Source: a virus
Strand: one strand, 5' to 3'
IMG/VR virus record: IMGVR_UViG_3300012202_000003
Coordinates: 1-45,797 of that record
Length of the DNA stretch: 45,797 bases
Both the position numbers and the translations under genes were made by a program. Position 1 is the stretch's first letter; every line of letters begins with the position of its first letter. The notes under the pieces were generated by a model. That model was given only the letters and a program-made list of their open reading frames with translations. It searched no databases and was not told where the DNA came from. Positions 471 to 37,504 of this stretch are shown here, piece after piece.

Positions 471-494
471 TTTCGTTCTCTTTCTCTTTGAGGG

Positions 495-2282: not shown

Positions 2283-3107
2283 TTAACTAAACACGGCCTG
2301 ACCGGGAGACTTCGATTTCGAAGCCGCCGGAGCACCGTTTCCTGCTCCACCTTGCCCCCCGCCCGAGAGCGTGGACATACGTGTGGTGGGGGCAGCACCG
2401 GGAGCGGCCCCTACTTGAGCAGCGGCCATTCCTGGTAACGCCTTTATAATAAGGCGAGATTGGTCGGCTATGAATTTGAACCCTTCTTCTTTGGTTCCTT
2501 TCCAGCCATTTGTCTTCATATCGGCGACGACCTTTTGCACGATCATCTCGAAACCTTTAAGGTCTTTGTTGACCTCAGTAAACTCAGCCCACAATGCCTT
2601 TTCCTGTTCCTTTTGAGCATAGGTCAACGCAGGTGAGAATTTCGCCTCAAGTTGTTCGCGTGCTTCTTGAAGTTGATAAGCCGCAAGCGTGGCCACTTGT
2701 TTTGCTACTCCCTGAGCAACCTCTGCCAGAGCAGCGAGAGCGCCGTCGCCACCAGCAAGGATTGCATCCCGCAAAGCGGGGGTGGGCTTGAAGATATTGA
2801 ACGCCTTATCAAAGTCCTCTTGGGTATATTGCTTTGTCGATTGCGTCGCCGGGGCTGCTTGAGGCTGGCCAACCCCTGCTTTCTTAAAGGCGGCGGCGAT
2901 CTCGTCCGCGGTCAAAGCGGAAGGAGGTGGCGTTGTGGGTAGAGTGCCCACTGGCGGAGTCCCGTCACCACCTGGTGGGGTGACTGGTGGCGTCCCTCCT
3001 TCAGCAGGTAGTGTTCCTGACGCTGGCGGCGTAGTAGGAGGTGTGCCGAATACTCCTCCCCCACCCTCCACCGAGTCAGCCATTCTCATTATCGTGTGTA
3101 ATTTCAT
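2283..3107 (-). CDS. Scaffolding protein (274 aa)
   Basis: Lies between portal and capsid. It has a Pro/Gly/Thr-rich N-terminus, a helical charged body and an Ala/Gly-rich tail. Confidence 0.6.
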   Translation of the reverse strand: MKLHTIMRMADSVEGGGGVFGTPPTTPPASGTLPAEGGTPPVTPPGGDGTPPVGTLPTTPPPSALTADEIAAAFKKAGVGQPQAAPATQSTKQYTQEDFDKAFNIFKPTPALRDAILAGGDGALAALAEVAQGVAKQVATLAAYQLQEAREQLEAKFSPALTYAQKEQEKALWAEFTEVNKDLKGFEMIVQKVVADMKTNGWKGTKEEGFKFIADQSRLIIKALPGMAAAQVGAAPGAAPTTRMSTLSGGGQGGAGNGAPAASKSKSPGQAVFS

Positions 3108-3393
3108 TTTGTTCTTTCTCTTTGGAGACTTCTTCTTGAAGTCTTTGTATCGTCAAATCCAGAAGTTGCCTCACCCGACTTTGGCCTCTGGCCTCGCCAA
3201 TATCCTGCTCACGTAGGAAGAATTCTTCAACCGTTCCCACACGCTTGTTGAGCACTTCAAAGACCTTACCCTTCGTCTCAACCACCAACGCCTCTTCCAG
3301 CGCCAGAAAGGCCATGTTCTCGTTCAATGCAGCGAACGCCCTAAGCTGGTCCGCCTTGGAAAAGTCCTGAAAGTCCACTTTGGCCTGGTTCAT
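3076..3393 (-). CDS. Hypothetical helical acidic protein (105 aa; alternative start at 3315 gives 79 aa)
   Basis: ORF between portal and scaffold. The 3393 start overlaps the portal 3' end by 53 nt. The ATG at 3315 avoids the overlap and follows ACGAGAAC. Confidence 0.45.
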   Translation of the reverse strand: MNQAKVDFQDFSKADQLRAFAALNENMAFLALEEALVVETKGKVFEVLNKRVGTVEEFFLREQDIGEARGQSRVRQLLDLTIQRLQEEVSKEKEQNEITHDNENG

Positions 3394-5275
3394 ACGGTTG
3401 AGAGGGCGCCGGAAGCGCCGGAGGTTGAGTTAGAGGGGTGACATTCCCTGGCATCCCCGGTGTAGGCGGCGGTGCGAGCGTGAATCGCTCGGGGTTGCGC
3501 ACCCCCCGTAACTCAAGTTGTTCCATTAACATCGCACGAGGGTCGATCTGAAGAGCGACAGCAGCCTGCGGGTTTGGGATGAGAGCCGTAAGCACCTCTT
3601 GGAGGGCCTGCGCAATAAGCACCTTCTCGCTCGGCAACGTCCCATCAAAGACCTCAAAGTCATAATTTCCCACTAAGTCCTCTTTGTCAGCTTTGATAAA
3701 GTCCGCTCCCATTGCTTTGTCCGCACCGACAAGGTTGACCACCGTTTTCTCGTCGAGACCGTCTCGGAGGTTTGAGAGCATCTTTCGTCCCATTGGTTCG
3801 AGAGCACCTCGGAAGATAAGCGTCGCAATCATCTTCAGCCGCGCTGCTGCGGAGGAGTTGACGTTCCGAGCCTCTGTTGCAGACCGGCGACCTGTATGAA
3901 ACTGCCCCAAAAGGTTATCCGAAATGCCCGTCGTAAGCTGCACCATATCCTGAAGGAATTTCGCGTCCGCGAGGTGGTTCTGCGTCACGTCCTGGATGTT
4001 AAGTTGCTTCACAACCCGGTCAATTCCTCCTCGTGCCGCAGCAAGGGGCTTGAGGCGTATCACCGGGTTCCTTGCCTGAAGGTCTTTCATCTCCACCCCT
4101 TCAGGGTCGACGATAAGGTAGTTTGAAATCACCTTCCGCACCGAGGTGATGCGAGAATTGATGAACCAGGAGATAACACTCTGAAGCGAATCAATAGTCT
4201 CCGATAGACCCATATTCACAAGGTTGTGGAAGTCCGGCGCATACTCGGCTACGTCATAGGTAAACTGCCCATGAAGATAGTTCATCGGTTCGCACTTGAT
4301 CACTCGCTGATCGTTGACATACCAAACCACATACTTCACCGGGTATTTCTCCGGTCCGAGGGGTTTGTCGTCCACCATATATTCCGACGGAATGATCGAC
4401 CTCTGCACCTCAGTCACCAACCGATTGCCTTTGCTTTGGGCTGAGTCAGCAAACTGTGTCATCGCCTCGTCCATCGAAAGACCCATTGAGTGATGCCAGT
4501 TCCCTCGTGCCTCAAGAGCTTGAATGGAGAAGCCTTTTGTGAACTCGACCCCAGAAACCTCCCCGCGGTTCTGCATTTCCATTAACGCCGTGTAGCTATA
4601 TTCGTCCTCCGAAGCGACAAACTCTCCCTCTTGAAAGCGGCATAAAGGCAGACGAACATCAGGAAAGAAGCGATACGGGGAAATGTTCAGAATTTTATTC
4701 CCAAGATACTTTGTCACCGTCTGCTGAGCATATGCCTGGACTTGTGGCACTTCCTGCACCCCCTGAAAAGGAGAGGTTGGCGGTATCGCTACCGGCATTG
4801 AGACCTGTTGAGTTTCACGGGTCCAGGAGGTTTTCACAATGCCCATTCCGAAGCGGGCAACGTCGAGCAAGAACTGATAGAGTCGCGCCTCGAAGATATT
4901 ATAGGAGAGGTCACGCGCAAGGAACGCCTCCCCTATCTTTGCGGGTTCTTGATCTTCTTCGGACATTCCTAAAAGTTCGAAGAAACGCTCTCTCTGTGTG
5001 AATAACGAAAAGCAGAACGAGACAAATGTCTGCACCTGAGAATAGGAAATAGGCACAACCATTTTCTCAGGTTCTCGTCGCTCACGCGCTTTCTTGTCCT
5101 GCTCGTCGGCACGGATGATCCCGCGGTAGATGTCGTCGTTTTTATCCCATTGGTCATAGAACACCCGCATCCTTCGACGGGACATTTCGACAAGTTTCTT
5201 TGAGTCCGCAAGAATGGTCTTGTGGAACTCACTTTGCTGCTCCCCCTTCAAAGAGTCTGTGACGTAGGATTCCAT
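3341..5275 (-). CDS. Portal protein (644 aa)
   Basis: Size and position upstream of scaffold and capsid fit a portal. Preceded by motif copy 5280..5304 plus GGAG. Confidence 0.75.
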   Translation of the reverse strand: MESYVTDSLKGEQQSEFHKTILADSKKLVEMSRRRMRVFYDQWDKNDDIYRGIIRADEQDKKARERREPEKMVVPISYSQVQTFVSFCFSLFTQRERFFELLGMSEEDQEPAKIGEAFLARDLSYNIFEARLYQFLLDVARFGMGIVKTSWTRETQQVSMPVAIPPTSPFQGVQEVPQVQAYAQQTVTKYLGNKILNISPYRFFPDVRLPLCRFQEGEFVASEDEYSYTALMEMQNRGEVSGVEFTKGFSIQALEARGNWHHSMGLSMDEAMTQFADSAQSKGNRLVTEVQRSIIPSEYMVDDKPLGPEKYPVKYVVWYVNDQRVIKCEPMNYLHGQFTYDVAEYAPDFHNLVNMGLSETIDSLQSVISWFINSRITSVRKVISNYLIVDPEGVEMKDLQARNPVIRLKPLAAARGGIDRVVKQLNIQDVTQNHLADAKFLQDMVQLTTGISDNLLGQFHTGRRSATEARNVNSSAAARLKMIATLIFRGALEPMGRKMLSNLRDGLDEKTVVNLVGADKAMGADFIKADKEDLVGNYDFEVFDGTLPSEKVLIAQALQEVLTALIPNPQAAVALQIDPRAMLMEQLELRGVRNPERFTLAPPPTPGMPGNVTPLTQPPALPAPSQPYEPGQSGLSGLFQGGPA

Positions 5276-5279
5276 CTCC

Positions 5280-5304
5280 GTTCGGGTTAATTATTGCCCT
5301 GAAC
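5280..5304 (-). promoter_or_regulatory. 25-nt dyad motif copy 1 (minus-strand reading GTTCAGGGCAATAATTAACCCGAAC)
   Basis: Fills the gap between the upstream stop (TAG, 5307..5305) and GGAG-ATG of the portal gene. Matches the consensus GTKMRGGKYAATAATTRMCCYKMAC. Confidence 0.6.
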
Positions 5305-11486: not shown

Positions 11487-11681
11487 CTATGCCGCGCGGT
11501 TTTCCTCTTCCTTCGCCCCCGCGGGCGTTTCAACCATCACCTCCGCGCCTACCCGTCTGATCACAACCTCCTCCCTCTGAGCCTTATCGTACACAACCGA
11601 CACCGGCTTAAGGGTGTTCAACGTCTGCCGCCGGAGAATCTCTTCCACTCGTGGTGGATACCCACTGTTTTTTGCACTCAT
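11487..11681 (-). CDS. Hypothetical 64-aa protein
   Basis: ORF with a purine-rich upstream tract (GAAAAAGAAAGGATTAAGACG-ATG). Confidence 0.4.
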   Translation of the reverse strand: MSAKNSGYPPRVEEILRRQTLNTLKPVSVVYDKAQREEVVIRRVGAEVMVETPAGAKEEENRAA

Positions 11682-12041
11682 CGTCTTAATCCTTTCTTTT
11701 TCTTCCCGGGAACGCGAAGCGGCTCCCCTCTGGAGAGCGGAACCTCTTGCACGTCATCGCCCTTTGGCCTCTCGGGGGAGCTTTTCTTCATCTTCCCCTT
11801 GATACCACAATGCGCCAAAGATGTCAACTCTTTTCTGGGCGACGCCTTCTCAGGGGAGAAAGCTCTTTTCTCGTCCCTCCTTCACCTCTCTTCTCCCCTG
11901 AGGGCCGGAGGCCCTACACAAGGAACTTTTAAATTCGGTTTTTGTGGTAAAGGGGATATAGGCTAATAAGTCATAGGGCCATTGGGGAGGACACCCTTTG
12001 GGAAACCCTTGAGGCGGAGGAACATGCGGAGGAAGAGGAAG

Positions 12042-12066
12042 GCCGCTGGCTCCAAGGACCAGCGGC
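12042..12066. terminator. 8-bp GC-rich hairpin (GCCGCTGG-N9-CCAGCGGC); possible end of the leftward mini-operon
   Basis: Read directly. It lies 22 nt beyond the stop at 12088. Only a weak T/U tract flanks it on either strand. Confidence 0.35.
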
Positions 12067-12087
12067 TTTGAGAGGAGGAGCTATAAG

Positions 12088-12234
12088 CTAGGCAGGAACG
12101 ATCTTGGCAAGGCACCATGCTGCCGTGGGCAGATGCGCCCTAGCCCAGAGGACGGCAGCGTGTTTCGATGTCCAGCCATAGCGTGGATTATCACAGCGCC
12201 AATATGCCTTGTTCCCCATGACGATGATGAACAT
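12088..12234 (-). CDS. Possible 48-aa protein (MFIIVMGNKAYWRCDNPRYGW...)
   Basis: ATG lies 4 nt after the stop of 12239..12652. This is the only protein-like part of the long track ORF 12088..12501. Confidence 0.3.
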   Translation of the reverse strand: MFIIVMGNKAYWRCDNPRYGWTSKHAAVLWARAHLPTAAWCLAKIVPA

Positions 12235-12238
12235 AGGA

Positions 12239-12652
12239 TCAAAGGTTAAGGTAGCGGTCAAGAGCAAGCGTTCTGGCGCTCTGTTCGGGAAGGCGCTTCC
12301 CACCTTTCGGCGAGGCCAACCATTGGCGGAATGCGGAGGCGTTCCCGCCAATGCCATGCTCCTGCGCGGATGCCATAAAGTCCAACCGCGAGGCTTCGGG
12401 CATTCCATGCTCGGCCGCGATTCCGGCAAGCAGGCTGAGGTGCTCGACCGTCCCCCAAGCCTTCGGCTTTCCAGCGTCCTGAGCTGCAAGAATAGCATCA
12501 ACCATGCTGAGCATTTGGGGATCTCCGATTTTTGTGATTTCTTTCATAACCAATTTGCCTTTTCTTTCCCCGGGAGCGGAATTGCTCCCGATAACCCTAA
12601 GCATAGCATGATCTCCGGGGAGAGCAAGCTTTTTCTTTATCTTTCTTTTCAC
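12239..12652 (-). CDS. Hypothetical protein ending in LDRYLNL (137 aa; alternative ATG at 12547 gives 102 aa)
   Basis: The most protein-like of three mutually overlapping ORFs. It is downstream of motif copy 2 and carries the C-terminal motif shared with three plus-strand proteins. Confidence 0.5.
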   Translation of the reverse strand: MKRKIKKKLALPGDHAMLRVIGSNSAPGERKGKLVMKEITKIGDPQMLSMVDAILAAQDAGKPKAWGTVEHLSLLAGIAAEHGMPEASRLDFMASAQEHGIGGNASAFRQWLASPKGGKRLPEQSARTLALDRYLNL

Positions 12653-12767
12653 CGCTTCGCACTGAGCGAAGCTAGGTGAGCATTTTTCATGCCTCTCTCG
12701 GGAGAGATGGCCCTCCGATAAGCCCGTCGATGGAAATGATCGACATTCGCCTCAGGCGCTCCCCTAG

Positions 12768-12792
12768 GTGAAGGTTAATTATTGCCCCTCAC
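12768..12792 (-). promoter_or_regulatory. 25-nt dyad motif copy 2 (minus-strand reading GTGAGGGGCAATAATTAACCTTCAC)
   Basis: Lies in the gene-poor region. The central AATAATT orientation points leftward toward 12746/12652. Confidence 0.55.
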
Positions 12793-13178
12793 AGAAGCTT
12801 GACGAAAGTGTGTCGGTCCGACGCCGACGCCGACACGACCTAAGTGCTTGCGGGAGAAGGAAAAGTGTTGGTCGTCCCGTTGGTCGTCTGATCACGAAAG
12901 GCATTTTGCCTATCCCAGAAAATGCCGCAAAAGTCCTTTTCCAAACGGCCAAAGCCTTTTTCTTACATGTGTCATTTTTTTTTTAGAAAAATGTATGTAA
13001 GAAGAAGGAAAAGCGAAAACCGTTTGGCGAAAGTGCCCTTGTGAAAGAGCTAGGTAATTTCTGCCTAGCTGGCAAAGAGCCAGAATGCCAAGCAAGGCCG
13101 ATGGGACGACCGATCAACCGACCCTTTTCATTGATTTGCAAGCTCTTACAAGCAAAAATGGTCGGCTATTTGATCGGC

Positions 13179-13373
13179 CTACCCCTTCCACTTTTTCTTT
13201 CGCCCGTTAAACCTTCGTCCTCGTGCTTTGTAGAAGGAAGAACGTGCATATTCAGATTGGTATATGAAGTAACGAGAACATCGACGTGAACAGCAGAGAG
13301 GTGGAGGAAAGGTGTGCTCAAAGAGTTCGCCACAGTAGCAGCAATGATAAAGGTTAAGAAGGGACATTTTCAT
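13179..13373 (-). CDS. Small zinc-ribbon protein (64 aa, MKMSLLNLYHCCYCGELF...CCSRRC)
   Basis: Paired Cys motifs CxxC...CCxxxC. An internal ATG of the track ORF 13179..13493 was chosen to remove the basic off-frame-looking N-terminus. Confidence 0.4.
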   Translation of the reverse strand: MKMSLLNLYHCCYCGELFEHTFPPPLCCSRRCSRYFIYQSEYARSSFYKARGRRFNGRKKKWKG

Positions 13374-13533
13374 TCGGGGGTTGAGGTTTTGCCACCACTT
13401 CGTGCGTGCGCCAAAACTCCGCGCGCTTATGCGCCGGGCAGCAAAAGCGTTGCCAGACCTTTTTCGGCGTAAAGGATTTCGCGCAGAGCACATAAGCGCA
13501 GGTTATCATCGGGAGGACTTTGGGTTTTTTCAT
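13354..13533 (-). CDS. Small zinc-ribbon protein (59 aa, MKKPKVLPMITCAYVLCAKSF...FCCPAHKRAEF)
   Basis: Cys pairs with a C..C...F...FCC..H pattern. ATG at 13533 within the track ORF 13354..13644. Confidence 0.4.
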   Translation of the reverse strand: MKKPKVLPMITCAYVLCAKSFTPKKVWQRFCCPAHKRAEFWRTHEVVAKPQPPNENVPS

Positions 13534-13890
13534 ATATGTGAGTAGAGCAACTGAATTCTCCGAGCCGAAAAGAGCCAGCTTTGCGGCTAGGGCGGCTATT
13601 GGGCCGCCCGCAAGCAGCCTAGCGTAGCATGAGATCAGCCGCAAGCTAAATCGCTCCTCCCCCTCCGCTCCGGCGCTCCCCAGGGCTTCGCCTTGCTAGC
13701 ATCTTTCATGCCAAGGCTCCGCCTTGGGCGGGATCTATTTTCATGCCATCTCTCCCCCGAGAAAGCAATTAAAGATAAATTCTTTTCTCGACATGCCCTT
13801 GCGTCCCCTGCTAGGCTCTTTCTCAAGGCGAGAGCCTTCGGCTGGCATAGAGCCTGCTTAGAGGCTTCGCCAAACAAAAGGCAAAATCAT

Positions 13891-14100
13891 ATGGCAAGAT
13901 GTGAAGATTATCCCTGCTGCGGCCACGAGGATGGTGGCTGCCCAAACCAAGATGGATCGTTCAATTGTGCAAGTTGTGGAAGAAAGTTGTCGAAGAACTC
14001 TCCTAGTTCAATTTGTACAAAGTGCCATCGTCGGGATAGAATAGCGAGGGCACGCGGCGAAGAGGTTGGAGGGGATTTTGATTACTCGATGAATTATTAA
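13891..14100 (+). CDS. Cys-rich small protein (69 aa, MARCEDYPCCGHEDGGCP...CASCG...CTKCH)
   Basis: Internal ATG of the track ORF 13693..14100. The upstream part is low-complexity, while the Cys-rich part looks like a metal-binding module. Confidence 0.5.
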   Translation: MARCEDYPCCGHEDGGCPNQDGSFNCASCGRKLSKNSPSSICTKCHRRDRIARARGEEVGGDFDYSMNY

Positions 14101-14109
14101 GGCCCAAAA

Positions 14110-14134
14110 GTGAAGGCCAATAATTAACCCGCAC
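14110..14134 (+). promoter_or_regulatory. 25-nt dyad motif copy 3 (GTGAAGGCCAATAATTAACCCGCAC)
   Basis: Ends 7 nt upstream of the ATG at 14142. A half-site-like AATTATTAAGGCCC lies at 14090..14103. Confidence 0.6.
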
Positions 14135-14141
14135 TAGCGCA

Positions 14142-14534
14142 ATGCAAAGCATCTTCAATCTTGCAGAAGCACGTGAAAGCCTCTCAAAGCGCTTCCCTAA
14201 TGCCTATCGACGTTCCTCCTACAATAAGCATCTCATCCTTAACCCATTTGACAGTTTAAGTGAGCTTGTCCTTTTATATGAAATCACGCTCCCGAAGACG
14301 AAGTCTTTCTGGCGTCTCACCGAGGCCCGCCTCGGCCATTGCCCAACGCTCCCTTCATGCGCTGGGCTTCTCGTCGCGACTGACGGCATGATGGCAATGT
14401 TGCTTCGCAGCGATGCGGAGCTTCTCGAAATTCATTGTTCGAGTTTTGTCGAAGATCAACCCGAAGCCGCGCCGGCGAAGGCAAGAACCTCACGGCCAGA
14501 CCCCGCATTAGATCGTTATCTTCAACTTGTATGA
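14142..14534 (+). CDS. Early hypothetical protein ending in LDRYLQLV (130 aa)
   Basis: First gene after motif copy 3. Carries the shared C-terminal motif. Confidence 0.6.
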   Translation: MQSIFNLAEARESLSKRFPNAYRRSSYNKHLILNPFDSLSELVLLYEITLPKTKSFWRLTEARLGHCPTLPSCAGLLVATDGMMAMLLRSDAELLEIHCSSFVEDQPEAAPAKARTSRPDPALDRYLQLV

Positions 14535-14626
14535 CAAACGAAAAACTCTCCCTCCTGATAGAACGTTGGTTCATTGCCCTTGTTATCGCGAAAACCATAA
14601 TCATCTGCTATCTTATCTTAAAATGA
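14531..14626 (+). CDS. Possible 31-aa hydrophobic micropeptide (MTNEKLSLLIERWFIALVIAKTIIICYLILK)
   Basis: ATGA overlaps at both ends (14531-14534 and 14623-14626) link it to its neighbours. Confidence 0.35.
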   Translation: MTNEKLSLLIERWFIALVIAKTIIICYLILK

Positions 14627-14832
14627 CCTTTAGAGAATGCGTCGTGATCGCAATGTATCGTGCGGGAAAACTTCCAAGCATTGAAAAAGCCCTCAAAGCC
14701 GCAGACAAAGACTTCCCTAGCGTTGGTGTGGTATCAACCACCCAAGTCCCACCAGAAAGCGTAGAGAAAATCTCCCAAGCCTTCTCGAAGATGCTTGAGT
14801 TAATCGAGCAAGAACGTATTCAGGAAAACTAA
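14623..14832 (+). CDS. Hypothetical 69-aa protein
   Basis: The ATG at 14623 is ATGA-coupled. The track ORF's upstream part (from 14527) overlaps the previous genes. Confidence 0.5.
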   Translation: MTFRECVVIAMYRAGKLPSIEKALKAADKDFPSVGVVSTTQVPPESVEKISQAFSKMLELIEQERIQEN

Positions 14833-14836
14833 CCTT

Positions 14837-15331
14837 ATGCAAAACAAAATCTTCCTTATCAACGCTATGCGCTCGTTAGTGAAAAAGCTTGAAGGTGGAG
14901 TTCAATACGACTGGCTTGACCCCCGTCAGTGTAACTGCGGCCTTCTGTTACGAGAACTTGAACCAGAATTCCACGCAGTCCCTGGAGTTGGTTCATACCG
15001 TAATGTGACCCGCCTCACCGCGAAAGAATTCTTCGGAAGATTCGAGAAATACGGGCTTAAACTCTGCAACCTCTATAGTTTAGAGAACCTTTCAAATAAG
15101 ATCATTAAAAAGCGTTCGGGTTTAGATAAAGTTCGTTATTGCTCTCTAAAAAGTGTGTTCTATAGGGAACGTGCCAACCTTATCCTTTATCTACATGCAT
15201 GGGCAGATATTCTTGAGGAACAAGACGCCGAACGGTTTGAACGTCGACCTTTAAATTTGACCCCAAGGTCAAAAACAGCACCGGAGAGCAATGCTGAACA
15301 TAAACTCTCCTGCAACCAACAACCAAAATAA
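14837..15331 (+). CDS. Hypothetical 164-aa protein
   Basis: ORF in an AT-richer stretch. No motif recognised. Confidence 0.55.
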   Translation: MQNKIFLINAMRSLVKKLEGGVQYDWLDPRQCNCGLLLRELEPEFHAVPGVGSYRNVTRLTAKEFFGRFEKYGLKLCNLYSLENLSNKIIKKRSGLDKVRYCSLKSVFYRERANLILYLHAWADILEEQDAERFERRPLNLTPRSKTAPESNAEHKLSCNQQPK

Positions 15332-15341
15332 AGGAAAAGCA

Positions 15342-15965
15342 ATGAAGCCAGTTAAAATGGACTCCCTTGGAGTTAAGTGCACCATCCTCGCTTACGAGAG
15401 CGTAGCGGAGCTTGTCGCCGCAGCCGGTGGCGAGGAGCAAGCTCTTGAGCGTATCAACCGCGATCTTGCCTATCGAGGGCCACATGCGGACTTTCGAGAG
15501 GAATTCGTCCTCCGCGTCGAGGAAGCCACAGGAATCGAACGAAAACTCGTACCGACGGGGAAGAAAGATGCTAAAGGACAGGATATTATGGAGTTTGGTG
15601 AGACCGAAGGACGATATATGGCAGGAGTTCTTGCACAAAAGGGTCTCAAAGATGCGACTTCTTTCCAGTCGATCGCTGATGGAATCACCGGAATCAAGGA
15701 CGACAAAGGTGTGGAACACCCTCTCGCCGTCGACATCAAAGCCGCTGAGCACAAACCCAAAGCTCCCGCGAAGCTTGGGAAACGTTTCCTCGATTACGCG
15801 AAACAAATCATCGCGAAGGGGAATGCGCAGAAGGTCGTGGACTTCATCCAGAAAGAGACTGGGACGGTAGTCGTGCTTACCGGCGATCCAACAAAAGATG
15901 CCGAGGCGCTTGGTTGGGGCATGAAGGCCAACGAAGAGGCACGCACCGCACTTCTCGCGGCCTAA
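15342..15965 (+). CDS. Hypothetical 207-aa acidic/lysine-rich protein
   Basis: ATG at 15342 follows AAAGGAAAAGCA. Its composition is protein-like, unlike the 295-aa antisense ORF. Confidence 0.6.
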   Translation: MKPVKMDSLGVKCTILAYESVAELVAAAGGEEQALERINRDLAYRGPHADFREEFVLRVEEATGIERKLVPTGKKDAKGQDIMEFGETEGRYMAGVLAQKGLKDATSFQSIADGITGIKDDKGVEHPLAVDIKAAEHKPKAPAKLGKRFLDYAKQIIAKGNAQKVVDFIQKETGTVVVLTGDPTKDAEALGWGMKANEEARTALLAA

Positions 15966-16745
15966 CCTGAAAATCATGCCCAAAGAGTGCTTACAGAAAG
16001 CAAGGATTTGTTGATGAAATATCCTTGGTTCAATAAAACTCTTTGGGCAGCTTTTGGACTCTCCCATGAACTTCTCCGCTGTATTTATTATGTCGTGTTA
16101 CCATTCATGGTCGCGGTGACCGAAGGGGGAGTCCTTTTCAAAAGAGCGCGTGGCGGAATAAGACGCTGAAAGTCGTGAACGGAGTAAGCAGTGCGAACAT
16201 GTTTGTTCTTTGCCGAAGTGGCAGTATAGGAACCTTGTTGCCAGTGCTGCCTTTCAAGCACGCGAACACGACGTGTAGAGTGCAATTCTCTACCGCGCTC
16301 AACCCTTTAGATCATAATTTGTCCGTGCCTGTGTTGGCCGAGCTGAAACGATAAAGATGAATAGTAGTTAAACGGGACTAGAGAAACTAAGGCCGTTCCA
16401 TTGAGCTGAACAAGTTAACTATAAAGTCATATGTCGCATCATAAAGCAAGTGAGATAGGGCACCATCTAAGAAATCAGTCTATCTCAGCGGACAATTCAA
16501 TTTTGCCAGTGCTCGTAAAAAATACACTGCATGGCTTGAGTAAGAAGGAGTTGTGTAACGCCCTTCTGAGGGCCGCCAGCCAGCACTAGCAATTCAATAT
16601 GCCTCGCAAGCAGAACTGAGAGCTACGAATATGCGTATCGTCAGTATAAACCACAGCGGTAAGCACTCTCCCTCTAGCCACATGGCAAGAACCAAGAGCG
16701 GTGCATCTCTGGTCCTACAGCGGAGCGAACTGTAGGGTTAAATTT
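15966..16745 (+). ncRNA. Candidate large structured noncoding element (ncRNA or origin); class unknown
   Basis: No credible ORF; all three stop codon types are dense in 16170..16745. Many nested stems were read directly, e.g. 15977-87/16039-49, 16056-63/16127-34, 16144-50/16294-300, 16320-25/16489-94 and 16451-58/16480-87. Confidence 0.35.
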
Positions 16746-16919
16746 ATGAACATATCAAAAGAAGATGCAGAAGAACTTGTCACCATCATGGCAGATATAG
16801 CACGAGCGGTTGGTGACGAAGCCGCTCATCCGAGTTGGTTTGGCCATGTCGATCAAGCAAAAGAAGCGGCTATCGTACGTCTTACTAACCTACCCAAATA
16901 CGAAAGTAAGTGCTCATGA
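16746..16919 (+). CDS. Hypothetical 57-aa protein
   Basis: ATG at 16746 (MNISKEDAEEL...). ATGA-coupled to the next gene. Confidence 0.45.
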   Translation: MNISKEDAEELVTIMADIARAVGDEAAHPSWFGHVDQAKEAAIVRLTNLPKYESKCS

Positions 16920-17101
16920 AACGAAAATGTATTCAATGCGCTCAAACCTTCAACCCTCGCCACTCCGGCGAGAGTATCTGCGATCTGTGTTGGAACGACA
17001 CCCTTCCACCCTCTATGAGAAGTGAGTTGCTCAACATCGCGGTGAATCCTATTGGGCGAGAGGTGAAGATCATAAAAGAAAAGGACAAAGACGATAAATG
17101 A
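16916..17101 (+). CDS. Small zinc-ribbon protein (61 aa, CIQC...CDLC)
   Basis: Two CxxC pairs. ATGA overlaps on both sides. Confidence 0.5.
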   Translation: MKRKCIQCAQTFNPRHSGESICDLCWNDTLPPSMRSELLNIAVNPIGREVKIIKEKDKDDK

Positions 17102-17793
17102 AAGCCTTTATCGGAGCATCTGAAAGTCCTCTTCCAGTCGAGGTGGAGCTTCTTGCAAAGGACACCATGCCAGGATTTTATCTCGTCAAGTATGGTCTGA
17201 AAGTTCTTCAACTCCACCACTCAAAACTTATCCCAACCGAAGTCGAACTTCAATCTATGAAAGACCTTGCCCAGAACAAACTCCCTTATCGCTTTCGAGA
17301 AGTGGCGTTCCGTCGCTATGAACCTATCCTAAAGCTTGTGCTTGAGCGCTTTCCCGCCCCCTTTTCGCTCAAGCCCGAAGGTTCGATTGAGACTTTCACT
17401 TGTCGCTTTCGGGATGCGATGAAGTCCCTTTTGAAGTATCAATGGCCGACCAACCTCCCGATGGCGAAGTTCGTCCAATGTGTCGATGCTATCGTTGTCA
17501 GCATTCAAGGCGACCTTGTTGTCATTGGTAACAGCGAAACAATCAAGCCCACCACCATCCTCGGCCAGCCTTGGACGCCCGCCTCGACCGAGCCTACCGC
17601 CCTGCCACTCGGTGTCACAACCCCTCTCTGGAACGTCATCGAGGCCATCTGTCTCTTACACGATCATCGTCTCTTGAAAACTTCTTCCTTCCTCCACAAA
17701 TGCGAGTTCTCTCTAACCGCCCTGAAGCAGTTGGAGAATCAATACGACGTCTTCATTGAGCAAATTGCCGATAGAGAGTTTAAAATTCTATGA
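17098..17793 (+). CDS. Hypothetical 231-aa protein
   Basis: Long ORF, ATGA-coupled at both ends. No motif recognised. Confidence 0.6.
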   Translation: MKAFIGASESPLPVEVELLAKDTMPGFYLVKYGLKVLQLHHSKLIPTEVELQSMKDLAQNKLPYRFREVAFRRYEPILKLVLERFPAPFSLKPEGSIETFTCRFRDAMKSLLKYQWPTNLPMAKFVQCVDAIVVSIQGDLVVIGNSETIKPTTILGQPWTPASTEPTALPLGVTTPLWNVIEAICLLHDHRLLKTSSFLHKCEFSLTALKQLENQYDVFIEQIADREFKIL

Positions 17794-18188
17794 CCACCAC
17801 CTTTGAAAACCCCAACAAAACAATCCGCCCTTCTTCTCGACTGAACGTGGATGTTCCCACCACATATCGGCTCTTCCTCGATAGCTTTCGACCTGCTTCG
17901 CGCGAAACCCTATCTATCATTATAAACCTTGCTCTTCGCAAACTCATCTATGAATGCAAATCCCGAAACCTTATCGACTACACCAACCGAGATGCCTTCG
18001 AATCCTTCGTCCTCTCCTTCTATGACATTTCAGGAGGAGATGGCAGTGTCGGAAGCTCCCCTCGAAACCCTCCTATCACTCCAGGGCCTAAAGCCAATGC
18101 ACCTAATGTCGGAGGAGGAACTCCTCTCAGTGGTGCAAAAGCTCCGCGCAAACCGGCAAAACTGGCAGGAGTTCCAGAAAAGCGTTAG
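17790..18188 (+). CDS. Hypothetical protein (132 aa); only the first ~85 aa look protein-like
   Basis: After ...SFYDISGG the frame becomes a Pro/Gly/Ala low-complexity tail, while the +1 frame becomes protein-like. Confidence 0.45.
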   Translation: MTTTFENPNKTIRPSSRLNVDVPTTYRLFLDSFRPASRETLSIIINLALRKLIYECKSRNLIDYTNRDAFESFVLSFYDISGGDGSVGSSPRNPPITPGPKANAPNVGGGTPLSGAKAPRKPAKLAGVPEKR

Positions 18189-18237
18189 CACCGGAGAGCC
18201 AGTCCCGAAGACCTTGGACCGATACCTCGACTTATAA
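18040..18237 (+). CDS. Hypothetical 65-aa protein ending in LDRYLDL, in the +1 frame overlapping 17790..18188
   Basis: ATG at 18040 is directly preceded by AGGAGGAG. The helical, charged sequence carries the shared C-terminal motif. Confidence 0.45.
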   Translation: MAVSEAPLETLLSLQGLKPMHLMSEEELLSVVQKLRANRQNWQEFQKSVSTGEPVPKTLDRYLDL

Positions 18238-18316
18238 ATACTATGGAGAGAAGTTCGTTCATTTTATAGATAAGACAGATTTCGTTAAACCAAAACCAAG
18301 AAGAAAGGCAAAAAAA

Positions 18317-18703
18317 ATGAAAGTGCAGGACGAAATTAACCGTATCATGGAAAGAGTTAAAGCCGCGCATAAAATGATAGAGTTTTTATCAAAATATAGG
18401 ATGCTCTTAGAGGACCTTGATACTGAAATTCAAGCTTTCAGTGATCACAATCTCGATATCAACGACCCTTCGAGAGAAGTCTTAACGAAAGGAATGCTAA
18501 AGTTTGGAGGTAAATGGAATAAGTCTATTTCCGCCTTAAATGAAACTCACCTTGATTACACACAGGAAATCGAAGGGATTCAGGTAAGGTTTTACAATGC
18601 ACCTCCGCCACCATCATGTAGGATCGAAGAAGTAGACGAGATTATCCCCGCTCAACCCCAGAGGATAGAAAAGAGAAAGAAACTTATCTGTAATGAAGTA
18701 TGA
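18317..18703 (+). CDS. Hypothetical 128-aa protein
   Basis: ORF in an AT-rich stretch with an A-rich leader. Confidence 0.55.
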   Translation: MKVQDEINRIMERVKAAHKMIEFLSKYRMLLEDLDTEIQAFSDHNLDINDPSREVLTKGMLKFGGKWNKSISALNETHLDYTQEIEGIQVRFYNAPPPPSCRIEEVDEIIPAQPQRIEKRKKLICNEV

Positions 18704-19629
18704 CCAACTCCCTCCCACCACTTCCCCTCATCGACGGTCATCTCTTCATCGACAATTCCGCAATGGAATACCTCAACAGTTGTCATCGCGCTGCTGAATA
18801 TAGTTTTATAAGACAAAGAAAACTTGCCGAGGATCGCTCCGCGCTTAGCTTTGGTAAAGCTATCCATCTTGCGGTGGAAGAACGATATAAACAGGTAGGA
18901 TCAAGAAAAGTCACCGAAGAAACTCGAACAGCTCAACGTCTCATTCTCACAGAGCATTTCCAGAAAGAGCCTGCCCATTTTGACGACCATCGAACGGAAG
19001 AGTTTGCAAATCGTGTGATAGATGAGTATAACGAAGAATATCCCACCGAGAATTTTAAAGTCCTTCCAGAGTTCATCGAAAAGTCTTTTGCAGTCGAAGT
19101 TGGAAAGATTGGTGAGATTACTATAATCTATACTGGTCGAATTGATCTTATTGTCGAAGAGCAAGGACACCTAATCAACGTCGACCATAAAACAACCTCC
19201 ATTATGGGTTCACTCTTCTTTGAAGAACAGTCCATCAGCCCACAACACCAAGGTTATTGTTGGGCGATTGCAGAGACTCTTAAATTTCGTCCGCCTGAGT
19301 TCCTCATCAATGCTATCTGCGTTCGTAAACCCACAGAGAAAGGAAAGGGAAAAGAAATTGAGTTCGCCCGCCAACGTTTTCCAATCTTTCAGTCGACGCT
19401 TGATGAATGGCAACAGAACTGCCTCGCCCTTATTGAAGAGTTTATCTGGAACTATGCGAAAGGCTACCTGCCAATGAAGCGAAAGTGGTGCATTGCAAAG
19501 TACGGAAGGTGCCAATACTTCGATGTCTGCGCACTTCCACAGGACCAACGACTTCTCCTGCTCAAAAGTGGAATGTTCTCGAAAAACGAATGGTCCCCGC
19601 TTGAGGGCCGGAAGAGTGAGCCGGTATGA
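18700..19629 (+). CDS. PD-(D/E)XK exonuclease, Cas4/RecB-like with a Cys cluster (309 aa)
   Basis: GRIDLIV...INVDHKTT core. One N-terminal Cys (LNSCH) plus C-terminal C-x6-C-x5-C (WCIAKYGRCQYFDVC), as in Cas4/AddB-type Fe-S nucleases. Confidence 0.7.
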   Translation: MTNSLPPLPLIDGHLFIDNSAMEYLNSCHRAAEYSFIRQRKLAEDRSALSFGKAIHLAVEERYKQVGSRKVTEETRTAQRLILTEHFQKEPAHFDDHRTEEFANRVIDEYNEEYPTENFKVLPEFIEKSFAVEVGKIGEITIIYTGRIDLIVEEQGHLINVDHKTTSIMGSLFFEEQSISPQHQGYCWAIAETLKFRPPEFLINAICVRKPTEKGKGKEIEFARQRFPIFQSTLDEWQQNCLALIEEFIWNYAKGYLPMKRKWCIAKYGRCQYFDVCALPQDQRLLLLKSGMFSKNEWSPLEGRKSEPV

Positions 19630-19910
19630 GTGAAGCCTATCCTGACATAATCGTTAACGTCACCTCTATGAACGATGGTCATAATGTCAAATGTCCACGA
19701 TGTTGGCATTGGCATGGTGTGGTGGAGAACTTCGGTCACCTTCCAGAAGAGGGGAAAGCCGACCCTTCTTTGGTAAAGGAAAAGCTTTGTGACAAGTGCC
19801 AAAAAATCATCCTCGAATATTACCCCGATCATCCTTCTGTGCCTTTCATCAAAGAGGCACTCCGAAAACAGAAAGACAAATATGCTAACCGCCTCCCTAA
19901 CATGTCCTAA
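19626..19910 (+). CDS. Zinc-ribbon protein (94 aa) resembling the IleRS C-terminal zinc finger
   Basis: KCPRCWHWHG...LCDKCQKII pattern (CxxCWH...CxxC). Confidence 0.5.
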   Translation: MSEAYPDIIVNVTSMNDGHNVKCPRCWHWHGVVENFGHLPEEGKADPSLVKEKLCDKCQKIILEYYPDHPSVPFIKEALRKQKDKYANRLPNMS

Positions 19911-20625
19911 ACCACCCGAACCCAAATCTATCCTACTCATCGGTCCGCCCGGTGGAGGAAAAACCACACTTGCTATGCAATTCCCGTCTCCCTGTTTCAT
20001 GGATTGCGACGGTAATCTCGACGGCCCCTCGGGTTTTCTCGGGAAGCCCCCCTTTGCATGGTGTCCTATTCGCTTCACTGATGATGGAAAGCCAGTCGAA
20101 CTTGAACAATGCTTCGACCGCCTCATTCAAGAACTTATCTTCGTTGCAAAACAGGACCATATCAAAACGGTCATCATCGACAGCCTTACGATGGTGAATG
20201 AATTCGTTATCAGGAAGATTCTATCTCAACAAGCTCGACCATTTGGAGAGATGGAAGCCCGTGATTGGATTCCCTTCAAGTCGAAGTTCCTTACTCTCCT
20301 CGTCCGCATCCTTCGCGGGATGAATAAGACCACAATCTGCGCCGTTCATGAAGTGATCCTCACGAAAAGCGACCCTAAAAATATGATGAATGTGATTATT
20401 GAGGGCTATCGTCCCTCGGTCCAGGGATCGGTGACCGATTACTTTGGCGCCTTTTTCACCGACGTTTGGAGATGCACCTCCTCCCCACCTATCGGTGGAA
20501 AACCGCAGCCCTACCAGGTTCAGACGGTGAAAGACAGCCGCTCTCCCGATCTGAAGTCGTCATGCGGAATGCCCGGTGAGATGAAGGCGGAGTGGGCGGA
20601 AGTGAACAAATATCTAAAACTATGA
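19882..20625 (+). CDS. RecA-fold P-loop ATPase, Sak4/AAA_24-like recombination protein (247 aa)
   Basis: Walker A LLIGPPGGGKTT and Walker B-like VIIDSL. Typical size and neighbourhood (exonuclease upstream, SSB-like downstream). Ends in NKYLKL. Confidence 0.65.
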   Translation: MLTASLTCPKPPEPKSILLIGPPGGGKTTLAMQFPSPCFMDCDGNLDGPSGFLGKPPFAWCPIRFTDDGKPVELEQCFDRLIQELIFVAKQDHIKTVIIDSLTMVNEFVIRKILSQQARPFGEMEARDWIPFKSKFLTLLVRILRGMNKTTICAVHEVILTKSDPKNMMNVIIEGYRPSVQGSVTDYFGAFFTDVWRCTSSPPIGGKPQPYQVQTVKDSRSPDLKSSCGMPGEMKAEWAEVNKYLKL

Positions 20626-20837
20626 ACCTATACTACTTCAAAGTCAACTGGGACTTCCTCGTCGTTGCCCAGACCGAAGGCGAAGCCTTGGAAATCGCCC
20701 AACTTCGGGTTGACGATTCAGCAAAGTTTGAGCATATCGTCGAGATCGTCCCGATCGAACCCGAACTTGTGGTCGACATCCAAGAAGACCTTCACAATAT
20801 CATCGTGAACATTTACCCTGGAAAGGGAAAAGGCTGA
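20622..20837 (+). CDS. Small acidic hypothetical protein (71 aa)
   Basis: ATG at 20622 is ATGA-coupled to the ATPase stop. Rich in Asp/Glu. Confidence 0.5.
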   Translation: MNLYYFKVNWDFLVVAQTEGEALEIAQLRVDDSAKFEHIVEIVPIEPELVVDIQEDLHNIIVNIYPGKGKG

Positions 20838-20883
20838 CATCCTATCTGTCAAAACCAACAACCAAAAAGAAAGAACCAACAAA

Positions 20884-21327
20884 ATGCAAGACCCAGAAGT
20901 TCCCTCATCCTCCATTCTCGATGAGGATATGTCCGGTGTTGACACTTCAATGCCCATCATCGCCTCTCCGATCCTACATGCCTTCGACATCGCAAAGGTC
21001 GAAGAGGTTGCGAATAGCACAAAGACTGGCACGAACCTCAAAATCACCTTGAAGACCAGTGCGGTGCTTCAAGACACAAAAGGCAACCAAATCCAACCTG
21101 GCTGGCCCTGTTATACATATATCGGCCTCACCGAAACTCCGAAATATAACAAAGACGCAATCAAACGTTCCTGCGCGACCTTCGTCGAGGCCGTTCTTGG
21201 GGTGAAGGAAAAACTCAATCCCCTAAGCCGGTTCGAGGGAAAGCGCGTCATGTGCAAGGTCGGCATCGGAAAGGCGACGGAGGAATACCCCGACCCCGGA
21301 AATACCTTTCGGTTTGTAAAAGCCTAA
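20884..21327 (+). CDS. DUF669-like putative ssDNA-binding protein (147 aa)
   Basis: The pattern of ...HAFDIAKVEEVANSTKTGTNLKITLK...FEGKRVMCKVGI...GNTFRFV resembles the DUF669 proteins that usually follow Sak4-type ATPases. A GAAAGAAC box lies upstream. Confidence 0.45.
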   Translation: MQDPEVPSSSILDEDMSGVDTSMPIIASPILHAFDIAKVEEVANSTKTGTNLKITLKTSAVLQDTKGNQIQPGWPCYTYIGLTETPKYNKDAIKRSCATFVEAVLGVKEKLNPLSRFEGKRVMCKVGIGKATEEYPDPGNTFRFVKA

Positions 21328-21330
21328 CGT

Positions 21331-21582
21331 ATGAACCGAACTATAAAAATCGTTCCAATTCTCAATGGATTCGTCTGTGAAGTAGGCTGTCAAAAGGTCT
21401 GTTTTACTAATCGGGTAAGTTTACTTGACGCTTTGGAACTATATCTCAAGAATCCCAACGAGGAAGAACGAAAGTTTCGTGAAGAGGCTGTTAATCCTGA
21501 TATTGAAGGATTAACTCCATGCCCCACAGATGGATGTTCTACGACATCTTCACCACTCAATCCCGTCGTTCCAGCCCGTTAA
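21331..21582 (+). CDS. Hypothetical 83-aa protein
   Basis: ORF only. Confidence 0.5.
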   Translation: MNRTIKIVPILNGFVCEVGCQKVCFTNRVSLLDALELYLKNPNEEERKFREEAVNPDIEGLTPCPTDGCSTTSSPLNPVVPAR

Positions 21583-21600: not shown

Positions 21601-21637
21601 CCCGCACCTAGGGCTATTTGCCGGCTGTAGGTGCGGG
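21601..21637 (+). terminator. 10-bp hairpin (CCCGCACCTA-N17-TAGGTGCGGG) followed by TTAATAATT; possible terminator overlapping motif copy 4
   Basis: Read directly. The 3' arm is also the left arm of the 25-nt motif. Confidence 0.4.
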
Positions 21638-21655
21638 TTAATAATTAACCTGAAC
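21631..21655 (+). promoter_or_regulatory. 25-nt dyad motif copy 4 (GTGCGGGTTAATAATTAACCTGAAC)
   Basis: Ends 10 nt upstream of the ATG at 21666. Confidence 0.6.
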
Positions 21656-29231: not shown

Positions 29232-29256
29232 GTTCAGGTTAATAATTGCCCTTCAC
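29232..29256 (+). promoter_or_regulatory. 25-nt dyad motif copy 5 (GTTCAGGTTAATAATTGCCCTTCAC)
   Basis: Starts immediately after the TAG at 29229..29231. Lies 42 nt upstream of the HNH gene ATG. Confidence 0.55.
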
Positions 29257-29298
29257 CTATGAAGCCATTTTTCCAACTTGGTAACGGACGACCCTGCT

Positions 29299-29781
29299 AT
29301 GAAAACTATTCCAATTGCAAAATATCCACATATTCTTATACTCGTAGATGACGATGATTATGATAAACTAAAAGACTATACATGGCGGTTAGTTGAAGGG
29401 TATCCAGCAAGAGGATGCAACGCAAACACCTCACTCTCTTCCCCGTTTATCTTAATGACTCATTGTATTCTGCCCTGTAAAGAGGGTTTCGTTATAGATC
29501 ATGTAGACCAAAATAGGTTAAATAACCAAAAGATAAACCTTCGTTATCTTACCTATTCACAGAATAATTTCCACTCAGATAAACACGTAAGAAATACAAC
29601 TGGCTTCAAAGGAGTCTTTTCTGCAACTTATCATGGAAGAGTTTCTTACAGAGCTAGAGTTTGTATCAATCAACAAAGGATTAACTTAGGTAGCTTTAAA
29701 ACCGCAGAAGAAGCGGCGAAAGCTTATGATGCTTATGTAAAATTACATGTAGGGAAAGTTGCTCACTTAAATTCCCCTTGA
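29299..29781 (+). CDS. HNH homing endonuclease with a C-terminal AP2 DNA-binding domain (160 aa)
   Basis: IDHVDQNRLNNQKINLRYLTYSQN (HNH_3-like) and GFKGV...YRARV...LGSFKTAEEAAKAYD (AP2). Visibly AT-rich relative to flanking genes. Confidence 0.8.
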   Translation: MKTIPIAKYPHILILVDDDDYDKLKDYTWRLVEGYPARGCNANTSLSSPFILMTHCILPCKEGFVIDHVDQNRLNNQKINLRYLTYSQNNFHSDKHVRNTTGFKGVFSATYHGRVSYRARVCINQQRINLGSFKTAEEAAKAYDAYVKLHVGKVAHLNSP

Positions 29782-37479: not shown

Positions 37480-37504
37480 GTGAAGGTTAATTATTAACCC
37501 GAAC
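37480..37504 (-). promoter_or_regulatory. 25-nt dyad motif copy 6 (minus-strand reading GTTCGGGTTAATAATTAACCTTCAC)
   Basis: Fills the gap between the TAG at 37507..37505 and TGCT-ATG of the giant gene. Same 29-nt architecture as copy 1. Confidence 0.6.

Follow-up and report, generated by a model that had tools for sequence, protein, structure and literature searches.

A conserved, covarying tRNA-like RNA domain in an open-reading-frame-free tract of a soil phage genome

Transfer RNA mimics that lie within a longer transcript, such as the MALAT1 mascRNA and the herpesvirus tRNA-miRNA units, recruit RNase P or RNase Z; modules of this type define RNA ends and release a small stable RNA, with further stem-loops downstream. 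The large RNAs GOLLD and ROOL are often found near tRNA genes. Phages are known for tRNAs and for a few stable RNAs; the roles of the latter, T4 rnaC and rnaD among them, are still unknown after 50 years. These two RNAs (species 1 and 2) are phage-encoded, non-decoding and ~120-140 nucleotides (nt) in length, lie in the tRNA region and have no known function to date (PMC3014915). Here we analysed a stretch of viral DNA of 45,797 nt (IMG/VR record IMGVR_UViG_3300012202_000003, called the window below), which represents the whole genome (~45.7 kb) of a phage from soil metagenomes, with a focus on its tract at 15966-16745 that is free of open reading frames (ORFs). This tract had been predicted, from the letters of the DNA alone, to encode a large structured RNA or else an origin (the original prediction). 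We found the real unit to be a tRNA mimic of ~160 nt at 16144-16300, designated D1, together with a second module at 16596-16736, designated D4, amid lineage-specific stem-loops. D1 is a conserved, covarying, strand-specific RNA domain of a previously uncatalogued phage tRNA-like family. The parts of D1 are as follows, in window coordinates.

16144-16300, plus strand: D1, the tRNA-like core (92 bits with covariance model R1; supported by covariation)
16144-16150 with 16294-16300, plus strand: acceptor-like stem P1, 7 base pairs (bp)
16151-16152, plus strand: invariant UG (U8-G9)
16153-16166, plus strand: D-arm, with GCG at 16153-16155, loop GAAUAAGA at 16156-16163 and CGC at 16164-16166
16167-16274, plus strand: variable branched arm, which occupies the place of the anticodon arm
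16275-16293, plus strand: T-arm-like hairpin, with GUAGAG at 16275-16280, loop UGCAAUU at 16281-16287 and CUCUAC at 16288-16293
16301 onwards, plus strand: 3' end, A16301 and then ACC(C)

The minimum free energy fold of the window's own D1 sequence retains P1, the D-arm and the T-arm, and its interior forms the branched arm. As the phage has no close variants, the search for relatives ran through the gene directly upstream, which we call A1, and relatives of D1 were reached through the slot 3' of the homologous gene in contig L034. The A1 protein of L034 is 32% identical to that of the window; at a distance of 190 nt 3' of its gene stands GAGCGCGTGGCGGAATAAGACGC ... CCGCGCTCAACC, with GCAGAC/GUCUGC as the inner hairpin where the window has GUAGAG/CUCUAC. 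A 23-nt block of D1 shows no difference between phages even where the neighbouring proteins share 32% identity or are unrelated. The 19-mer GCGTGGCGGAATAAGACGC matches 15 IMG/VR contigs (less than one chance match was estimated), all of which have the full architecture, and the same holds for one contig of a Pyrinomonadaceae metagenome-assembled genome (MAG), L071. Three other matches to this 19-mer in the genome collections (Streptomyces, Citrobacter and a Steroidobacteraceae MAG) were rejected, as the structure is absent there and ~4 chance matches are expected in ~600 Gb. A search keyed on the 3' half of D1 added members with altered D-stems, and another keyed on D4 added L078, in which P1 is fully covaried (GGACGAG/CUCGUCC). 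The covariance model R1 was built from a MAFFT alignment of 11 members (alignment A7) and detects 22 distinct copies in the collected loci, including those of L044 and L031, which lie just 3' of A1 genes, and a second copy in L061. With these 22 aligned members and L078, the family comprises at least 23 elements in IMG/VR, JGI and MAG contigs. The two copies in L061 are found on opposite strands, at 318-503 (minus) and 4326-4499 (plus), and the second has a longer D-loop.

The helices of D1 were found to be well supported by compensatory changes. In alignment A7 (11 members, MAFFT, not fitted to the structure), 97.8% of the cells are paired and ten of the 17 pairs have changed on both sides, while controls in which the partners were slid gave 24-50% pairing. 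RNAalifold, run on the MAFFT alignment, predicted the same 17 pairs independently. In alignment A8, where 22 members were fitted to R1, 96% of the cells are paired and 15 of the 17 pairs have changed on both sides; for each of the two alignments, none of 500 shuffles was as good. All three helices covary in A8. For P1, six of the seven pairs have changed on both sides: GAGCGCG is present in most members and the others have UGGGGCG, UAGCGCG, GGGCACG, GAGAGAG or GGACGAG, with matching partners. The T-stem covaries in all six pairs and is always adjacent to P1, with no spacer before the 3' strand of the latter. In the D-stem, GCG/CGC is replaced by GAG/CUC and CUG/CAG in L073 and L074. The domain of ~150 nt closed by GAGCGCG/CGCGCTC with the GTAGAG/CTCTAC hairpin inside, as drawn in the original prediction, is thus the core of a covarying family, and these two stems as well as CCTACAG/CTGTAGG of D4 show compensatory changes across phages. 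The covariation analysis of metagenomic homologues that had been proposed along with it supports the D1 stems and a real, evolutionarily conserved secondary structure on the plus strand.

Several single-stranded features are also conserved in the family. The UG at U8-G9 is present in 22 of 22 members, the discriminator A in 17 and U-1 in 14, an ACC or AACC tail is found in about nine of the 22, and the trailer is A/U-rich. The T-arm-like hairpin has 5-6 bp and a loop of 7 nt, which reads UGAAAUU in 13 of the 22 members and UGCAAUU in the window. The UGAAAUU loop keeps U54 and A58 and lacks psi55C56, and it fits the T-loop motif; canonical T-loops were observed only in L071 (UUCAAAU) and in the second copy of L061 (UUCCAAU). 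The interior of D1 ranges from 8 to 176 nt across members and cannot be aligned. Furthermore, the helices keep G-U pairs, which would be A-C on the opposite strand.

D1 is always co-oriented with its flanking genes, which are mostly small and unknown, and an ORF usually begins 10-60 nt 3' of it; in the window, the distance from D1 to the next ORF is 445 nt. In at least 15 loci it occurs by itself, immediately 5' of an ORF, and no gene family is common to all D1 loci. The A1 gene is located just 5' of D1 in the window as well as in L034, L044 and L031; in L047 the distance from the gene down to D1 is 1.3 kb. A functional link between D1 and A1 was rejected as a general one, since most D1 loci have no A1 gene. 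Searched alone against cultured phages (INPHARED), D1 gave chance-level matches only.

The likeness of D1 to tRNA was then seen in its architecture and in two model comparisons. The 7-bp covarying acceptor stem, U8 and the D-arm of a tRNA are present in D1, and the anticodon stem-loop of 5 bp and 7 nt is absent; D1 cannot decode because it has no anticodon arm. The tRNA model RF00005 scores 33.5 bits on L071 (gathering score 29). On this member the model covers the acceptor, U8, the D-arm, the T-arm and the discriminator, passes over the anticodon arm with a local end of 39 nt, and matches one strand only. Conversely, R1 run unfiltered on the tRNA cluster of T4 places tRNA-Ser first, with 17.2 bits and an E-value of 2.5e-4, followed among the tRNAs by tRNA-Leu, which scores weakly at 5.4 bits. 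The class II tRNAs of the cluster are these two.

The remaining elements in and next to the tract are listed below.

15342-15965, plus strand: A1-family gene, function unknown, also called from 15291 (context)
15977-16049, no strand assigned: H1, a perfect 12-bp stem (15977-15988 with 16038-16049) that encloses a 7-bp hairpin (16001-16007 with 16021-16027)
16056-16134, plus strand: H2, a domain closed by GGACUCUCCC/GGGGGAGUCC, one G-U pair included
16319-16495, plus strand: D2, a variable domain closed by UUGUCCG/CGGACAA and followed by UUCAAUUU
16503-16592, plus strand: D3, a variable domain closed by UUGCCAGUGCU/AGCACUAGCAA
16596-16736, plus strand: D4, with the 5' block AAUAUGCCUCGCAAGCAGAAC at 16596-16616 and the terminal hairpin CCUACAG-CGGAGCGAA-CUGUAGG at 16714-16736

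D4 is a second conserved RNA module, common to four other phage contigs (L063, L067, L077 and L078). L063 and L067 carry an exact copy of its 5' block of 21 nt and L078 a near-identical one, and its terminal block of 30 nt is 93% identical in L063 and also found in L077 and L078. The window has C-G as the outermost pair of the terminal hairpin where the other contigs have G-C, and the hairpin ends 9 nt before the ATG at 16746. The gap from D1 to D4 measures 8 nt in L078, and it holds one closed domain in L063 and two (D2 and D3) in the window and L067. In L077 (IMGVR_UViG_3300025030_001854, a 136.8-kb contig), a D4-like element occurs on the minus strand at ~87-262 without D1, ~45 nt 3' of a promoter-like site (TTGACA-17-TGTGTAATCT) and directly before an ORF. 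The D4 block can also be read as a mini-ORF, AUG-CCU-CGC-AAG-CAG-AAC-stop (MPRKQN), at 16600-16620 in the window and likewise in L067; in L063 it has 18 codons. An 18-mer of D4 in L065 and L066 was discarded, as it forms the start of real genes (MPRKQN...) there and is probably a chance match. In L067, a second tRNA-like element was observed after the D4 block, at 508-660 on the minus strand. It has the acceptor AGCUAGG/CCUAGCU, an encoded CCA, a 5-bp arm with the 7-nt loop UUGACGA and the T-loop UUCAAAU, and it was not called by ARAGORN.

D2 and D3 are lineage-specific inserts, which have positional analogues in other phages and no sequence conservation. The analogues of D2 are closed by UUGAUGGCAAU/AUUGCCAUCAA in L058, GAUGGCAA/UUGCCAUC in L063 and GACUCC/GGAGUC in L067; the predicted TGTCCG/CGGACA stem is therefore matched in position in three other phages, but by a different sequence. 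The interior of D2 cannot be aligned and its folding z-score is -1.32. In the window and L058, D2 is flanked by the similar linkers AAUUUG ... CAAUUCAAUUU. D3 has an analogue in L067 (GGUCAGU/ACUGACC) and is absent from L063 and L078. The 11-mer TTGCCAGTGCT had been noted as a repeat. Its copies were confirmed at 16238 and 16503, and positions 16582-16592 hold an inverted near-copy; the 11-mer forms the closing stem of D3, which explains the repetition. Its 14 matches across the genome represent no enrichment, as 11.8 are expected.

H1 begins 12 nt past the stop codon of A1, with GAAAA on its 5' side and CTTTT on its 3' side. Its z-scores are -4.65 (plus) and -6.6 (minus), with none of 200 shuffles as stable. 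Stable hairpins are found at the same place 3' of the orthologous gene in L007, L008, L010 and L030, and H1 is for this reason best read as terminator-like or 3'-stabilising; it is probably a terminator, an attenuator or a stabiliser of the 3' end. A scan with a terminator consensus misses H1 because it has only four U (UUUU on either strand). An exact 25-mer of H1 had no match in JGI metagenomes. H2 has a z-score of -2.29, with six of 200 shuffles as stable, and in L034 the same place before D1 is taken by an unrelated domain closed by a 12-bp stem. H1 and H2 together (15977-16134) have no homologue in any collected locus.

The tract was found to have no coding signal. Across the six frames, stop-free runs reach 94 codons at most, and no ORF that begins with a start codon exceeds 65 amino acids (aa). 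With a 3-periodic Markov model trained on 38 genes of the same phage, windows over ~15960-16740 score -0.14 to +0.03 bits/nt in every frame, as against +0.04 to +0.14 for the flanking genes. The small ORFs of the tract score -0.07 to -0.19 bits/nt, with one minus-strand ORF near zero, and they are equally long on the two strands. Searches of these ORFs against Pfam and PHROGs gave nothing below an E-value of 0.04. The earlier view that no credible ORF lies in 15966-16745 is therefore upheld, and a degenerate pseudogene left no trace in tblastx searches of the tract against its relatives and the rest of the genome.

All stems quoted in the original prediction were recovered at their positions by reading the sequence and by an inverted-repeat search. 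Its description of the region as heavily stem-looped holds in that three of the stems are conserved with compensatory changes in other phages, but the folding energy is ordinary except at 15977-16049. In a genome-wide scan of 150-nt windows, the mean z-score of the region is -0.44 (plus) and -0.87 (minus), compared with genome means of -0.42 and -0.34, and the sole outlier in the region is the scan window that contains 15977-16049. The whole 780 nt have z-scores of -2.4 (plus) and -3.45 (minus) with 20 shuffles, and stems other than H1 have z-scores of -1.3 to -2.6, with boundaries picked after the fact. Folding energy alone does not set the region apart, and only the first hairpin beats shuffled sequence. 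In addition, no known RNA family was recognised: a cmscan of the whole window against Rfam 15, the comparison suggested for this tract, gave 0 matches at gathering thresholds, and the proposed membership in GOLLD, ROOL, HEARO, OLE, raiA or the group I/II introns found no match. For the region 15800-16900, a threshold of E<=10 returned just two chance matches to unrelated families, and six related loci had no match to Rfam.

The A1 gene is found in public data with two starts, giving 224 or 207 aa. Its true start, judged from the alignment of homologues, is probably 15342 and not 15291: the homologues align from M18 of the longer ORF, and an A-rich leader with AAGGAA precedes 15342. Homologues occur in about two dozen phage contigs, and a profile search against the PDB with the A1 protein gave no match. 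The slot 3' of the gene measures 94-122 nt in L008 and L010 and ~1 kb in L011, and in L007 it holds a probable 134-aa gene. The slots of L007 and L011 were rejected as homologous non-coding RNAs, as they show no similarity and that of L007 probably codes for the 134-aa protein. At 9222-9626 in L007, a 199-aa ORF of odd composition had been called; the 134-aa ORF in another frame is more protein-like and has weak matches to DUF6385 and phrog_3105.

Bases 1-123 of the window are identical to 45675-45797; with this 123-nt direct repeat at its two ends, the assembly represents a genome of 45,674 bp that is either circular or terminally redundant. Minus-strand genes at both ends of the window encode major head, portal, terminase and tail proteins, and a plus-strand block at ~14.1-31 kb has genes for a PD-(D/E)XK exonuclease, a Sak4-like protein, a ParB-methyltransferase, a UDG-PolA polymerase and a primase. 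Copies of this phage occur in JGI 3300012205, in three Logan runs and in one assembly of ENA, and all of them are 100% identical to the window from 13098 to 21500. The phage has no match in the INPHARED collection of phage records, and BLAST of a 1.8-kb region against cultured phages found none. The tract lies between the stop codon (15963-15965) of the 207/224-aa gene and the ATG at 16746 of a 57-aa gene. A search of 5.8 billion proteins yielded hardly any homologues for the flanking proteins of 231 and 57 aa, and IMG/VR scans with the two flanking proteins gave no match.

The tract is non-coding, probably belongs to an early, plus-strand transcription unit and bears a string of RNA modules. 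A palindromic motif, GGTTAATWATTRMCC, occurs at six intergenic sites (5285-5299, 12773-12787, 14115-14129, 21636-21650, 29237-29251 and 37485-37499), with 14 strand-matches against 4.3 expected, and at four sites it ends 10-15 nt 5' of an ATG; it is a candidate promoter or operator of the phage. The tract has no copy of this motif. D1 lies between the copies at 14115 and 21636, which mark operon starts, and is therefore probably co-transcribed with its neighbours. A search of the tract for Bacteroidetes-type and sigma-70 promoters gave no convincing site. An A/C-rich leader, AACCAACAACCAAAAnnAAAGGAA, is conserved just 5' of three start codons (15314-15336, 18288-18310 and 20853-20875). A Shine-Dalgarno sequence is absent from most genes of the phage, which hints at a host with Shine-Dalgarno-independent initiation.

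Elsewhere in the genome, a second and larger low-coding tract is located at 11651-14201, at the divergent junction of two gene blocks. By the Markov model it is the only other long low-coding tract of the genome, and it contains the most stable local folds (z-scores of -6.0 at 12901 and -5.4 at 13051) and long inverted repeats, including two copies of the palindromic motif. As a place for the origin and early promoters it is a better candidate than 15966-16745, and it might instead hold further non-coding RNA. An ORF of 2169 aa at 30966-37475 (minus) has a single family match, which falls at the C-terminal end (positions 2921-3369) of a 3431-position PHROG of unknown function; its product may be a giant virion protein and is possibly RNA-polymerase-like. 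A homing-endonuclease-like gene of the HNH-AP2 type is found at 29278-29781, between the DNA polymerase and primase genes.

The best explanation of these observations, which we favour with moderate confidence, is an array of RNA modules in which D1 is a tRNA-like core with a role in processing and mimicry. D1 would fold as an L-shaped tRNA mimic, host RNase P would cleave it at G+1, usually after U-1, and the tRNA 3'-end machinery would cleave within its A/U-rich trailer. Such excision is probable, as D1 offers the cues to which RNase P and the 3'-end machinery respond: an acceptor/T stack, an elbow, U-1, A73(CC) and an A/U-rich trailer. The cleavage would punctuate the polycistronic RNA, giving an ORF 10-60 nt downstream its own 5' end, and would free a stable tRNA-like RNA. 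The released RNA may then act as a decoy or hijacker by binding a protein, of the host or the phage, that recognises tRNA from its acceptor/elbow side. The near-invariant acceptor and loop sequences exceed the needs of processing, which argues for a specific partner that reads tRNA on the side away from the anticodon; a non-decoding tRNA-shaped RNA that is kept almost base for base in phages sharing little else points in the same direction, to the acceptor or elbow. A wider proposal, which we regard as possible but doubtful, is that D1 founds a widespread class of anticodon-less tRNA mimics that are excised by host tRNA enzymes and serve as anti-defence or host-takeover RNAs, with D4 as a second new class travelling along. 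Such a mimic would titrate or hijack, for example, a tRNA-targeting defence toxin, a synthetase or the CCA-adding enzyme.

Several points weigh against this explanation. Every functional step proposed for D1 is one that we infer. The window's own D1 has no match to RF00005 at E<=10 and is for that reason not filed as a tRNA, and ARAGORN called no tRNA or tmRNA in the window or in any of 21 scanned D1 loci; we accordingly regard the D1 copies as mimics and not decoders. Given these two negatives, the description as tRNA-like rests on the architecture, on one member above threshold and on the match of R1 to class II tRNAs. Real tRNAs have a G18G19/psi55C56 pair that is missing from the common T-loop UGAAAUU and the D-loop GAAUAAGA, so the elbow of D1 may differ from that of tRNA, and U-1 could pair with A73, which would disfavour RNase P. 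Part of the apparent invariance of the D-arm is a selection effect, as the first search of the collections demanded an exact 19-mer; it is relieved only by the members keyed on the 3' half and on D4. The constant order of D1 and D4 in four phages makes a joint function as one RNA possible. Finally, a 2023 survey predicted 8,495 unnamed structured-RNA candidates in IMG/VR, some of them tRNA-like (PMC10690425), and the D1 family may already be among them.

The prediction of one ornate RNA of 0.6-0.8 kb is not favoured by the data, and we consider it unlikely that D1 to D4, perhaps with H1 and H2, form a single multi-domain non-coding RNA of ~600-780 nt similar to GOLLD or ROOL. The order of D1 and D4 is the same in the window, L063, L067 and L078, with zero to two closed domains between them, linkers recur in the window and L058, and the fold of the whole region is more stable than its shuffles on both strands. 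However, D1 is found alone before ORFs in at least 15 loci and D4 alone in L077 behind its promoter-like site, so that the two occur separately; D2 and D3 are unconserved in sequence, H1 and H2 have no homologues, local stability is ordinary and no large RNA of Rfam was matched. A similarly small probability is given to D1 and D4 as cis-acting leaders that control translation or stability of the downstream ORF and are never released. The short distances to the ORF (10-60 nt past D1 in most loci, 9-20 nt past the D4 hairpin in the window and L077) and the lack of Shine-Dalgarno sequences in most genes of this phage would suit such leaders, but the downstream genes are unrelated between loci, no family of neighbours spans the D1 loci, 445 nt separate D1 from the next ORF in the window, and the acceptor, discriminator and CC features would be left without a role.

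That the tract is genetic debris without present function, such as a decaying tRNA gene cluster, is very unlikely. D1 is tRNA-derived in form, L067 has its second tRNA-like element with an encoded CCA after D4, H1, H2, D2 and D3 lack homologues, and the slot holds other content or nothing in relatives; yet pseudogenes would be expected neither to keep a 23-nt block identical in phages with such divergent neighbours nor to preserve all three helices by compensatory changes, and tblastx detected no remnant. The origin alternative, or more generally a replication or protein-binding element at the DNA level, is extremely improbable: the region contains no iteron array and no AT-rich unwinding tract, its GC skew is uninformative, the conserved helices include G-U pairs and keep a fixed orientation relative to genes, the tRNA model matches one strand only, and the divergent tract at 11.6-14.2 kb is a better origin or promoter candidate. 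In its favour, the tract lies upstream of recombination and replication genes, and H1 forms a perfect palindrome as DNA, with a stability on the minus strand that equals or exceeds that on the plus strand. It is barely credible that the tract is a series of very small early genes. Four plus-strand ORFs (51-60, 59, 52 and 34 aa) tile 77% of the tract, the JGI caller took the one of 51 aa, and AAGGA precedes its ATG by 8 nt, but minus-strand ORFs are as long, the scores stay below the +0.013 bits/nt of the real 57-aa gene, the translations have a random-like composition without database matches, and in the conserved blocks the conservation extends to every codon position across phages.

The module array with D1 as its tRNA-like core shows that long ORF-free tracts in phages can be arrays of separate RNA modules. 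The D1 family is a defined, covariation-rich substrate of 70-225 nt. It could be used to test whether host tRNA-processing enzymes cut phage mRNAs, whether tRNA mimics act as decoys against tRNA-directed defence systems, and how far the tRNA scaffold tolerates replacement of its anticodon arm.

Among bacterial RNAs with a tRNA-like domain, YrlA, a bacterial Y RNA, and tmRNA are similar to D1 in that acceptor, D- and T-elements form a tRNA mimic in which the anticodon arm is replaced; D1 differs in that it has neither a Ro-binding stem nor a tag reading frame. The YrlA model (RF02553) reached at best 11.9 bits against a gathering score of 69 (E-value 9.3), in one member, and nothing on the window; for tmRNA, there was no ARAGORN or Rfam call on the window and no ARAGORN call on the 21 D1 loci. 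GOLLD and ROOL resemble the tract in that they occupy ORF-free stretches of several hundred bases with many closed domains in phage genomes, but no covariance-model match was obtained at the thresholds tried and the units here are 110-160 nt long and occur separately. The mascRNA and tRNA-miRNA units share the concept with D1, while being eukaryotic or herpesviral and unrelated in sequence, and the processing of D1 is a proposal.

With class II tRNAs (Ser, Leu and Tyr type; RF00005), D1 shares the 7-bp acceptor, U8, a 3-bp D-stem with closing of the G13-A22 type, a T-arm-like hairpin (5-6 bp, loop of 7 nt) that stacks on the acceptor, the discriminator A and a frequent CC(A), as well as extra sequence between the D- and T-arms. 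The D-arm of D1, UGGCGGAAUAAGACGC, is close to that of E. coli tRNA-Leu, UGGCGGAAUUGGUAGACGC, minus UGG. Unlike these tRNAs, D1 has no anticodon stem-loop of 5 bp and 7 nt and no G18G19, and its interior is branched and 8-176 nt in length. The rnaC and rnaD of T4 are, like D1, phage-encoded non-decoding RNAs, and rnaC ends in a tRNA-type T-arm, GGGUUCGAAUCCC; they differ in that their sequence is not similar to that of D1, in that R1, with filters off, gives them at most 3.5 bits and in that they lie inside a true tRNA cluster, whereas D1 is found among protein genes. D1 is a phage tRNA-like RNA whose family is absent from Rfam. D1 belongs to none of the catalogued families tested, and its nearest counterparts in kind are the class II tRNAs and rnaC and rnaD of T4.

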